NCBI GenBank assembly: GCA_013265495.1
Contig: MU057999.1
Span: forward strand, 620,001-684,000
Reading direction: 5' to 3'
Source: Vicugna vicugna
Taxonomy: Eukaryota
Length of the DNA: 64,000 bases
How positions within the stretch are numbered: the stretch's first letter is position 1; each line of letters starts with the position of its first letter. The notes below the pieces were generated by a model. That model did not search any database, was not told the origin of the DNA, and worked only from the letters and a program-made list of their open reading frames with translations. Position numbers and translations under genes: made by a program. Of this stretch, positions 6,742-62,520 are shown one piece after another.

Positions 6742-6859
6742 CTGCACATTTTCTCGAAGAGCCCAGCATAGCCATCACAGTTGGTCTTCTGGGTCTGCAG
6801 GATGGTGGTGGGTTTGAAGGCTTGGCGGTCCTTCTCCTGGGCAGCCTCGATGTCGTACT
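6742..6859 (-). CDS. KY: KY coding exon 8 (118 nt, phase 1-2), contains the putative catalytic Cys
   Basis: gccctccag|AGTACG...GCAG|gtacgg; encodes (E)YDIEAAQEKDRQAFKPTTILQTQKTNCDGYAGLFEKMC(R). The Cys of the NCDGYA motif is at 6777-6779. Confidence 0.96.
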
Positions 6860-8343: not shown

Positions 8344-8452
8344 CTATGTGGTGGCAGATCCAGATCCAGATGGCGCGGACCCTCTCCAGGTCACTGTGGG
8401 CCTCCTGGAGCAGGTCACTCACCAGCTCGTCCAGGCCACTCTTGACCGTCAC
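8344..8452 (-). CDS. KY: KY coding exon 7 (109 nt, phase 0-1)
   Basis: ctccctag|GTGACG...ATAG|gtaggc; encodes VTVKSGLDELVSDLLQEAHSDLERVRAIWIWICHHI, start of the transglutaminase-like region. Confidence 0.96.
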
Positions 8453-9149: not shown

Positions 9150-9232
9150 CTGTGAGGCATAGGTGTCCAGCTTCTCAAACTGCCGCAGGTCCAGCGGCAT
9201 GGATTTCAGGCTGGACCGATCCCAGGGGTAGG
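9150..9232 (-). CDS. KY: KY coding exon 6 (83 nt, phase 1-0)
   Basis: tgtttccag|CCTACC...ACAG|gtagga; encodes (A)YPWDRSSLKSMPLDLRQFEKLDTYASQ. Confidence 0.96.
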
Positions 9233-11908: not shown

Positions 11909-11971
11909 CGTGGGCGTCTTTCCCTCCAGGCTGCCGGGGTCTTGTGTTTCCATTTTTATCACCTTGTAAAC
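11909..11971 (-). CDS. KY: KY coding exon 5 (63 nt, phase 1-1)
   Basis: attgtag|GTTTAC...CCACG|gtaagc; encodes (C)LQGDKNGNTRPRQPGGKDAH. Confidence 0.95.
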
Positions 11972-13712: not shown

Positions 13713-13787
13713 ATTTAGCCAAGGAGAACTTCTTGAGCAGTTGGGGCATGGCGTCTCGAGGGTGGACCTCCACAGTCAGCTGTGTCC
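13713..13787 (-). CDS. KY: KY coding exon 4 (75 nt, phase 1-1)
   Basis: tcctttgcag|GGACAC...AAAT|gtacgt; encodes (G)TQLTVEVHPRDAMPQLLKKFSLAK. Confidence 0.95.
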
Positions 13788-23598: not shown

Positions 23599-23629
23599 NN
23601 NNNNNNNNNNNNNNNNNNNNNNNNNNNNN
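23599..23629. other. Assembly gap (31 N)
   Basis: Run of N in a G-rich context. Confidence 1.
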
Positions 23630-24107: not shown

Positions 24108-24170
24108 CTTGGCTGTCGTAGGACGTGATGACCTGGGTCTGCTGGGGGTGCTGTTTTTCCACCAGGTTTC
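24108..24170 (-). CDS. KY: KY coding exon 3 (63 nt, phase 1-1)
   Basis: ttctttaaatag|GAAACC...CCAAG|gtaagg; encodes (G)NLVEKQHPQQTQVITSYDSQ. Confidence 0.95.
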
Positions 24171-27806: not shown

Positions 27807-27869
27807 CATGCAGGTCACTGCCTTCCAATTTCTGCCATCTCCGGATTCCGTTTCCGACGACTTGGAGTC
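27807..27869 (-). CDS. KY: KY coding exon 2 (63 nt, phase 1-1)
   Basis: ttcacag|GACTCC...CATG|gtaaat; encodes (G)LQVVGNGIRRWQKLEGSDLH. Confidence 0.93.
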
Positions 27870-30800
27870 CTGTGAAGTAACAAGGACCAGCGTGAGGCTC
27901 TGCAGTAGAGAGACCCAGGCCAGGTGCACCAGTTGCAAACAGCTCTGGGTCAAAGTGTGGCTGGTGGAACTTGGCTCTTCAGGGATCTGAGGGAGGTGGC
28001 CAATGAGACCCACTTGGAGGAATGAATGCCATCCTCACATTTAAAACATTTACAACATCACCACGGGAGTTTTCAAGGGTGGCGGGCTGGTGACCAGGAT
28101 CATCTAGGGAGAATTTTCACAATAGAGATGGCCTTTTGCCACTCCCACATCTCCACTGCACGGATGTGGAACTATTATTATGAAGACATTTGCCATTCAT
28201 TTTGCCTGCCTACTTCTGTACGTGGTGAATCTTCCACTTACAGAGTCTTGATGGGGAGTGGCGGGTGGGCACAGACAGCCCATCCCTATGGGAACAGAAA
28301 GTTACTGTTGCCTGCTCTCCCAGCCTCCCTTGCAGCTTGAGCAGGGACCTGTGTGGCCACGGAAAGGCAGTCAGAGGCACCTGTGTCCCATTCCGTCCTG
28401 GGACATTGTGAGGGAACAGGGAAGGAGATGGAAGCACGTCCTCTCTCTCTCTCTCTCCCTCTCTCTCTGGCAGCGGCTAGAAGTGGTAGCTGCAAGGTCG
28501 AGTTCCTGGCGCAGAACTGGCATATGTCCTGGCAAGGCAAGCAGCTGCAATAAAATCAAGTTTCTGGCGCAGAAGGAGCATCCAGTGCTCCTTGGTGGCA
28601 GCGGAGGCTTCCTCACCAGACCAGCGCTGCTGTGCAGCTTATGGCCCCGTTCCTGGAAGCCCGGCCTGCAAGCTGCTTCTCCAGCCTTTTCCACGGCTCT
28701 GAACCCCCCAGTCTTTTCTCGACACCCTGCTTTTCTGCAGAGCCCTAAGCCATCAGTGTCTGGACTTACTGCTCGGAACCCTCCCTGATACACCCGGGGA
28801 GTGGAGTGCACACATCCCATCAACTTTGAGGAAAAACCTAAGACATCAAAGCTCTTTCAGACCTGGCATGGGCAGCTCAAGGCTACCTTCTCCACGGCCA
28901 GGGGAATACACGATAGGAATTGAGGGCTCCCAGGCACGTTTTGGAGAAGCACTGCTCTAAGGAAGTGGCTGGGGACATGCTAGGGCCCTACTGAAAAGGG
29001 AAGGAGGGTAGAATCTGCTGCCTGGCAGCCTAAATTCCTGGTGCCCACGCTCCTTGCCTCCTTGTCCCTCTGACTCTTTTCTGCCATACAGACACAGCAG
29101 AAAGTCACCTGGTCACAACTTCACATAGTCCTTTGCATGTGACAGTAACCAAGCTTCACTTCTTTTCTTATGCGGAGCTCAGGCCCTCCTTTGCAGAGCT
29201 GGGGAAGATTCCCTGCCCCGCCGGGGGCCTGGAGCTGGGAAGAGACAGGATGAGACGCCTAGAAGTCTGTGTGGGGGTGTGTTTTGGATCTTTGCGCACC
29301 AAGAGGAGGCCTTGGAACAAGCTAGTCTTGTTCAGTGTTGCCCCTCCTTAGGGAGTGGGCCTGCAGGCTGGCATAGCCAGGGGTCTCCCGGACATGACTG
29401 CTGCAGCAGGCCTCGGAGGCCGTGCGCTCGCCCTCTGATGGGCTCCTGTGCAAACCTGTCTGATGGTGAATAAGTGACACCGGTCTCTCCACTGCCGTAG
29501 AGTGGGAGAAATGTCCGTCGGGAAAATATTTGGAGAACAGTATCGGCAGAGAGGGGTCAGCAAACGGGGGTCTTCTTTCCCTGAGTCACGGTTAGGAGTG
29601 TGAAGTGCGTTGGTCTGGAGTCATGCAGGGTTTGTGCCGGGTGTCGAACACCTCTCGGAGCAGCCCTGATCTCTGGCGTTTATGGCCCTTCTCTGTGATC
29701 TCCACCCTCGCTAGTGTCAGAGCCTTTCGGAGAGATGTGATCAGAGGAGGAGAGGGAGGCCGGGCCTCGTGGGGGCCCCTGGCCCCCTGGACTGCGGTAC
29801 GTGTAGCAGGGGCAGCCGCAATTATCTCAAGGAAGGCCAATGGCTTCTGCCAGTTCCCTCCTTACAAACACCCTGGGCGGGCCATTTCCTCTTCTCCCAC
29901 CAGTAGATCTGAGAACTAAAGTACCAACTGACCCAAACAGCTCCAGGGCCCCAAATCCCCCGGGAGACTGAAGTGCCTGGCAACATCCTCAGCTCTCCAG
30001 AATTGACTTCTTTCCCCTGCCTGCCTCCCCAAGAAGTTCCCAGGAGCTACGGGGCAGCCCCAGCCTGTGTGGCTGGTGGCGGCAAAGCCATCCACGGTGC
30101 CAGTGCTTCAGTGGAGCGAGTGGAAGGTGAATGTTCAATACGCACAGGGGCCATGGGGACAGAGGGCCGGGGACAGACTTCAGGGAGCACTGGAGCTGGA
30201 AGGGAGGCAGGAGGCGGACGTCATTTTACCTTGAGGGCGGTCAAGCTTCGCTCCCAAAGAACCCGGGCATAGTCCGCCTAGTGCACCTTCACACCAGCCT
30301 CCTCAAGGGCTCCTGAGGGCTTCCTGATAGACCTGGACCCAAGGGAGTCTCTGACTTATGGGGGGCTGATTTAACCTCCATTATTATCCATCTATACTCC
30401 CTTCACGCTGTGTCCTGTTCTCTGGAGAGTACAGAAGCCAGAGTCTTGCTTTCCACAATCACTCTATGAACAGTCGCTGTATCTTACCAGTTTACCCTTG
30501 TTCAGAAAGTCTGTAGGATATTAGAATTAATAGATTAGCCAGAGTAGGGAGAGCAGCCTTTAAGTCCAACCCTACCCAAGCTTGTGTGCCTTTTACACCT
30601 TGTGTGCCTTCTACTGTAGGAGGCTGGGAGAGGGCTCAAGAGAGGGGACACTGAAGCCATGGGTTGTGCTAGGACACCAAAGGAGCACCCCATCTCAAAA
30701 TCTAACTCACCACACAGATCCCCCTGGATCCCCTGTGCCCTGCAATGTGGCCTGTGGGGAGCAGGCCTTGGGCACGCAAGAGTCAGGCCTGAGGCTCTGG

Positions 30801-30879
30801 TCCCTTTCCTCCAGGGCATCTTCCAACCTGATCTGCACCCTTCAAAGAGTGACTAGCAGGAAACCGGCTCCCGAGGGTG

Positions 30880-31570
30880 ACAGAAGCACAGCAGGCCTGC
30901 ACGGGGAGTCAACCCAGGGCAATCACGGGGCTGCGCGTTGCCACGGGACGCCAGAGCCAGAGCTGTGGCGCGGAGGCGCAGGCAGCCTTGGGGAGCCGGA
31001 CGGCCTCGCTGACCTCGTTCGGGGGCGCGTGGGGCGCCCCCCGGCGGGCGGGCCCCGGGGCGAGGAGGAGGAGGGGCCGGGGGCCATCGATGGACACAGC
31101 GTTGTCGTCCTTCTTCAGCTCCATGGTGCCGCCCGCTCCGGCCGGTGCGCCGCGGCCGCTCGCGAGGCTGCCTGCGCTGCAAATGGCCCGTGCGCGCCGC
31201 TGCCCGGCGCGGGAGACGGCCAGGGCGCGGGAGAGGGCGCTCCCCGCCGCCCAGCCGCGGCGCCGCGTTTCGCTGACTCTGCCAAACTCGCCATTAGGGC
31301 CCGCCCGGGAGGGCGCTACCCCAGTGAAGAAGCTCTAAGTCACCTTTGAAAGGAAATCCCCCGCCGAGGCCCCCGCTCCCGAGTCTCCCTCCCCGCGCCC
31401 CCGGCCTCCCGCCATGGCGCTGGAGCACGTCCTGGGCCCCGCGGGTTACTCTCGGGCCAGCGGGGCTCTGCCCCATCCCGCGATTCCGGGAGGTTTTCCG
31501 AGAGGGCTGTAGATCTCCAAAAGGCGCGGCAAATACAGAGATCGCACAGTGAGAGTCAGTGCGGGAAATG
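30880..31570. promoter_or_regulatory. CpG island / KY promoter and exon 1
   Basis: Very GC- and CpG-rich stretch around the KY ATG, with GC boxes (CCCGCC near 31243 and 31300) and an E-box CAAATG at 31180-31185; no TATA box seen. Confidence 0.85.
31014..31124 (-). CDS. KY: KY coding exon 1 (start codon; 3' part aberrant in this sequence)
   Basis: Strong Kozak context GGCACCATGG. MELKKDDNAVSID matches the KY N-terminus, but sequence below 31086 does not match the expected MLLIVHSEKRR. The best donor is GAG|GTCAGC at 31014/31013, so the 3' boundary is uncertain. Confidence 0.75.
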
Positions 31571-40512: not shown

Positions 40513-40806
<294 letters not shown>

Positions 40807-61601: not shown

Positions 61602-62520
61602 ACAGCAGATCTCCAACTCTTCAGTCTCAGGACCCCTTAACACTCTTAAAAATTATTGAGGATCCCAAAAATTTCTTTTTAAAAGGTAGGTTATGGTTAT
61701 CAATGTTTATCATATTAGAAACTAAGACCAAGGAATTTAAAAAATGATTTATCCATTCACTTAAAAATAACTGTAATACAAAATTTGTAGATACTGACAG
61801 GCATATATAGAATAGATAAAAAAGATTATACTGTATAGCACAGGGAAATATATACAAGATCTTGTGGTAGCTCAAAGAGAAAAAAATGTGACAATGAATA
61901 TATGTATGTTCACGTATAACTGAAAAATTGTGCTCTACACTGGAATTTGACACAACATTGTAAAATGACTGTAACTCTATAAAAAATGTTTAAAAAATAA
62001 AAAAAATGTGACATATATGTATGTTCACGTATAACTGAAAAATTGTGCTCTACACTGGAATTTGACACAACATTGTAAAATGACTGTAACTCTATAAAAA
62101 ATGTTTAAAAAATAAAATAAAATAAAAATAACTTCAATAAATCATTGTATGTTAACATATTTTTAATGAAAATGATGATTTCTCAAAACAAAACTAAATA
62201 GAAGAGTGGCATTATTTAAGTTTATGGAAACTCTCTTAGGGTCTGCTTCTCTGGTTCCTTTCTCTAACATAATAGGAGACAGCTGAATTCTCATATCTGC
62301 TTTTGCATCCAGTCTATTGCAGGATCACACCTCATATAACGTCTGGAAAACGTAGTTATCATACATCAAATAACCTCTGGAAAATTCCTTTGTGTATCTG
62401 TGAGAGAAAGAATGAAAGAGGCAAATAAAACACTATTAGAAAAATAGTCTGACCTCATAGATCCTTTAAAAAGTCTTGAGGGACTTCAGGGGTCCTCAGA
62501 TAACACCTTAAGGATTCTGG
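61602..62520 (+). mobile_element. MER119-like hAT-Charlie DNA transposon, interrupted by a young L1 end
   Basis: gtctcaggaccccttaacactcttaaaaattattgagga...gaagagtggcatt...gacagctgaattctcatatctgctt...caggggtcc. Confidence 0.8.
61773..62122 (+). mobile_element. Young camelid-type L1 3' end with a tandemly duplicated terminus
   Basis: ctgtatagcacagggaaatatatacaagatcttgtggtagctc...aattgtgctctacactggaatttgacacaacattgtaaaatgact; TSD taaaaataact at 61762-61772 and 62123-62133. Confidence 0.9.

Follow-up and report, generated by a model that had tools for sequence, protein, structure and literature searches.

In the window, by which we mean the whole 64,000-nt stretch of DNA analysed here, the first coding exon of KY breaks off after codon 13 at a join from which about 125 bases are missing. 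We consider it probable, at roughly 78%, that these bases were dropped by the assembly in the GC-richest part of the KY locus and that the animal itself is unchanged. Coverage would have fallen away over the ∼80% GC boundary between exon 1 and intron 1, and the two good flanks would then have been joined gaplessly, either by gap closing or through a consensus taken from a read that skips the segment. If so, the animal would have a normal 136-nt phase-1 exon 1 and would make normal KY.

The start of KY and the join

KY lies on the minus strand and starts at the ATG at 31124, which has a strong Kozak context. Reading from this position gives 13 KY codons (31086..31124), all 13 residues of which are those of the alpaca protein (P0128), and then a peptide rich in P, L, G, A and R. 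A GAG|GTCAGC motif (31008..31013) follows after 111 nt of coding sequence and lies in phase 0, whereas exon 2 starts in phase 1. Splicing at 31014 to exon 2 yields a product of 82 codons that ends at a TGA in exon 4 (13778-13776, 63 nt upstream of the exon end), and the unspliced frame reaches a stop after 71 codons. The original prediction had reported this phase conflict and the 82-amino acid product, and both were reproduced when the exons were joined as written; it had also stated that exon 1 departs from KY after its opening codons, a departure that can now be placed after codon 13.

The normal form of the exon is well documented in other mammals. Among 80 mammalian KY proteins longer than 300 amino acids, the start pattern was matched in 46 and all 46 show the normal continuation; the remaining 34 start differently or come from models that lack exon 1. 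These proteins support the 136-nt, phase-1 exon with the continuation MLLIVHSEKRR that the original prediction had described. In KY orthologues exon 1 consists of 45 codons plus one base and ends in phase 1 at a GTAA-type donor; the window has 13 codons only and the donor is absent. Judging from the codons, the assignment of the true donor to the phase-1, GTAA type is probably correct, as residues 46-47 of the orthologous read-through are G-N in 35 of 50 ORFs and G-K in 7 of 50.

The join itself contains no N. The sequence upstream of the start codon (31125..31334), comprising the KY 5′ flank and 5′ UTR, is GC-rich (79.5% over 31125-31300) and colinear with its orthologues, matching 58 of 70 residues of the gray whale sequence P0179 in the same frame, and the 72-nt block on the other side of the join is likewise colinear with orthologues. 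The upstream region also holds a 59-codon ORF (31294-31115, minus strand), which is out of frame with KY and has a stop that overlaps KY codon 3; its ATG is in frame with KY in macaque (P0028) and in P0184.

The 72 nt that follow codon 13

The nature of the 72 nt that follow the join (31014..31085, 88.9% GC) was established by comparison with orthologous genomic ORFs. Residues 1-50 of P0128, used as query against short proteins, gave 51 matches, mostly ORFs of raw genomic contigs that cross from exon 1 into intron 1, and the 50 new ones were used. The 72 nt were translated in three frames and compared with 45 of these ORFs (five that were too short were left out), a match being counted as significant at 3 of 300 shuffles or fewer. 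On this measure, 28 of the 45 matched in the intron 1 read-through and none in the exon; two of the 45 are spliced forms, and these scored at chance level. Intron matches were seen in each of the three frames, as expected of homology at the DNA level; with P0193, for instance, 12 of 12 residues are identical. After extension of the stretch by 54 intron bases, 33 of 48 ORFs were significant and 45 of 48 scored higher on the intron than on the exon (two ORFs left out).

On this homology, 31085-31014 is ordinary KY intron 1 and not a garbled exon. The original prediction had called exon 1 corrupted and had taken the 72 nt for the exon itself in a low-quality consensus, on the grounds that its LLLL..RRGA stretch loosely echoes MLLI..RRAA. 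In tblastn, a weak extension across these bases (E ∼1e-4 to 1e-2) points the same way, but it includes the 13 true codons. None of the 45 orthologues was significant against the exon and 28 were significant against the intron at a single register, and we rejected this explanation as barely credible. What looked like corruption is intact intron sequence shifted up by a deletion.

In the same manner, the site that had been taken for the exon 1 donor is, according to the orthologous introns, an intronic GT situated ∼100 nt inside intron 1 of other mammals. The peptide-level motif around the GT at 31013 recurs at an intron offset of 93-111 nt in 9 of the 50 orthologous ORFs, and this GT scores 4 of 7 against the donor consensus, compared with 4-6 for the donors of exons 2-8. 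As a separate observation, the first ∼100 nt of KY intron 1 are recognisable across many mammalian ORFs, which would fit a regulatory element of the CpG-island kind.

The intron alignments also give the size of the missing segment. They imply an offset of 116-130 nt (median 125), and since the 72 nt are intron 1 at this offset, ∼125 nt (116-130) are missing at a single join. The position of the join (31085..31086) comes from the register of the 28 significant alignments, and its exact base is uncertain by a few nt. Missing there are 97 coding bases, which make up codons 14-45 and one further base, together with the true phase-1 donor and ∼25-30 bases of intron 1, and the shortfall is ∼125 nt rather than 25 nt. 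A misplaced copy of the missing part of the exon was sought within the 64-kb window and rejected, the best tblastn match to the missing peptide having E = 1.3.

The rest of the KY gene

Exons 2-8 were first located by motifs and then verified by tblastn with fetched KY proteins. They are exon 2 (27807..27869, 63 nt, starting in phase 1), exon 3 (24108..24170, 63 nt, missing from the alpaca isoform X2), exon 4 (13713..13787, 75 nt, which holds the shifted-frame TGA and, at 13749, the in-frame ATG that comes next), exon 5 (11909..11971, 63 nt), exon 6 (9150..9232, 83 nt), exon 7 (8344..8452, 109 nt) and exon 8 (6742..6859, 118 nt). All have AG..GT borders and are open over 190 codons in their own frame; no KY exons downstream of exon 8 were found within the window. 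Exon 8 encodes a Cys of the transglutaminase-like domain (6779-6777), which we take to be the putative catalytic residue of a presumed Cys-His-Asp triad, and its homologues carry PF01841. A search with exon 8 retrieved KY proteins, and all named matches were either KY or transglutaminase-like domain proteins.

The gene had been identified as KY, and this identification was borne out by the alpaca protein (RefSeq XP_072795696.1, P0128), which has a complete and normal exon 1. The window is identical to it at all 182 residues compared, that is, 13 of 13 in codons 1-13 and 169 of 169 in exons 2 and 4-8, P0128 being an isoform without exon 3. This places the window in a camelid closely allied to alpaca. 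The exon phases are shared with the alpaca and other mammalian KY orthologues (PF01841, PF23265); unlike them, the window lacks codons 14-45 together with the donor and the first part of intron 1.

Two minor observations concern the same part of the gene. A stretch of KY intron 1 (28468-28548, minus strand) resembles an extra exon of a cat model (P0016; 67% over 27 codons), has a stop in the window and is probably conserved non-coding DNA. Three kangaroo-rat KY models (P0029, P0166 and P0168) read exons 2-4 in a shifted frame and have regained the normal one ahead of exon 5; their shifted frame is the one given by the splice as written in the window, where it runs into the stop in exon 4.

These data bear on the idea that this camelid species or lineage has lost KY or carries the deletion as a fixed or common variant. 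Ten sequencing runs do share one tier of word content over the region (described below), a tier for which the lacking words are not specified. However, the alpaca KY protein is intact and identical, which means that there is no camelid-wide loss of exon 1. The further disabling changes and relaxed constraint that mark a unitary pseudogene are not seen in exons 2-8, which are open, keep their AG..GT sites and carry no amino acid change over 169 residues, so they give no hint of decay. Furthermore, loss of KY is harmful in mouse and human, according to two reports (PMC6078408, PMC13544891). Taken with these points, a lineage-wide loss appears very improbable. P0128 is the only camelid protein found to cover exon 1, and a second cluster look-up added none; the dromedary model (P0141) starts after exon 8, lacks exons 1-8 and is uninformative on exon 1.

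A real allele that has been rewired and yields protein all the same, be it from another donor, by exon skipping or by a restart at the ATG at 13749 in exon 4, seems to us more improbable still. A restart is conceivable from the sequence, as this in-frame ATG lies ∼27 nt beyond the premature stop and a pika model (P0170) starts there, and two phase-1 GTs are found upstream of the unspliced stop. However, both GTs fit the donor consensus poorly, and the whole proposal presupposes a real deletion. Rescue by exon skipping was rejected: with up to three of exons 2-7 left out in every combination, starting from the join at 31014, the frame was regained only when exon 4 and exon 6 were both absent.

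Assembly dropout or deletion allele

The position of the lesion argues for dropout. Among 200-nt windows across the 64 kb, the three with the highest GC content (79.5-80%) begin at 31021-31121, so that the GC-rich island noted earlier is confirmed as the GC peak of the window, with the join inside it and the 72-nt block adjoining. The assembly is also gapped, as shown by its sole run of N in the window (31 N at 23599-23629, in KY intron 3, beside a G-rich run). It has been reported that false losses and indels of genes in draft assemblies concentrate in GC-rich 5′ exons (Kim et al. 2022, PMC9516821). The present case has in common with those a first coding exon at a GC peak in an otherwise intact gene, together with an intact copy in the annotation of another assembly (alpaca P0128, at the protein level). 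It differs in that the errors in that study were confirmed by read mapping, whereas the join described here is known from the assembly, and in that ∼125 nt are lost gaplessly rather than through a small indel or an N gap. Dropout is further favoured by the identity to alpaca KY over the 182 compared residues, which shows no sign of gene decay.

The main alternative is a real, rare deletion of ∼125 bp in the sequenced animal that makes KY null, most likely heterozygous, with the assembler having kept the shorter and less GC-rich haplotype. Such a deletion would look identical to what is seen, namely a clean, N-free join with two sound and colinear flanks. An artefact in a GC-rich island had been favoured from the start, and that preference stands, but the clean join makes a real deletion less easy to set aside than the original prediction implied. 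In addition, KY disease is recessive and an early human frameshift, c.51_52ins28, is on record (PMC13544891), and a frameshift allele cuts ky mRNA tenfold in zebrafish (PMC6078408). Set against this, the lesion lies on the GC peak, where assemblies fail, none of the listed runs described below exceeds the top tier, and the protein searches returned no match with the join. We therefore regard a real allele as unlikely, though far less so than the other alternatives to dropout.

Twenty-four sequencing runs were listed for positions 30500-31500. The best ten, all DNA and from four organisms and four studies, reach 0.89 of 104 words, four others reach 0.88, and neither the six RNA runs (0.05-0.16) nor the four runs at 0.00-0.01 were counted as evidence. 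A run from a carrier should gain about 3 words, and none of the 24 listed exceeds 0.89, these shares being whole-stretch totals that do not specify the lacking words; the run of the source animal may not be among the 24. A clean join explains only about 3 (3.2) of the 11-12 lacking words (P(≥11) = 1e-4), so most of them are left unexplained by it under dropout as well, a point against our preferred reading, as is the single camelid protein that spans exon 1. The excess could come from wrong bases or broken contigs in the 89% GC block, from private SNPs or from words that the index does not score; as a point against a real allele, it would suit sequence of poor quality at this place in the window. 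If the 72-nt block were wrong throughout, 10.9 lacking words would be expected, which fits the 0.89 ceiling; this reading was rejected on homology, and the ceiling stays only partly explained.

At the protein level, none of 262 proteins compared has the join of the window, and 144 of them have the normal continuation. The 55-residue frame as written had no match at E ≤ 0.001 among 1.84 billion representative proteins, which is weak evidence as a join-bearing protein may hide inside a 50% cluster. A pattern scan of metagenomes gave 52 matches, none of them a relative, and the 25 exact 20-nt matches in metagenomes are attributable to chance because none could be aligned with the window for longer than 45 nt and none encoded exon 1.

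If the deletion were real, the donor would be gone and transcripts would either splice at the intronic GT at 31013, giving 82 codons and ending in exon 4, or run on into the intron, giving 71 codons. Both are predicted targets of NMD, which would make the allele null in a gene for recessive myopathy, and a heterozygous carrier would likely be healthy. Recessive loss of KY in people causes myopathy, kyphoscoliosis or spastic paraplegia (PMC13544891). The allele would belong, as a new member, to the known class of recessive KY nulls (human c.51_52ins28 and c.710+1G>A, PMC13544891; the ky/ky mouse and zebrafish ky-yo1, PMC6078408), with which it would share an early frameshift, loss of a donor and predicted NMD; those alleles were validated in carriers, whereas the lesion described here is known from one assembled sequence. 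A natural KY null in a New World camelid would make it possible to test for carriers and would serve as a large-animal model for the human KY myopathy, and no paper on camelid KY was found in titles and abstract openings among the best-ranked matches.

If dropout is the correct explanation, this is an ordinary false loss and a warning that this assembly can lose an exon boundary gaplessly. Reads are required for gene-loss calls at GC-rich first exons, and intron sequence that a deletion has brought forward can mimic a garbled exon.

Finally, two repeats were noticed elsewhere in the window. Positions 61898-62123 hold two tandem copies, 99% alike, of a 115-nt AT-rich unit with an A-rich tail end, which looks to us like a duplicated 3′ end of a retroelement or, alternatively, a duplicated contig end, and a 260-nt (AGAA)n purine array occupies 40527-40788.
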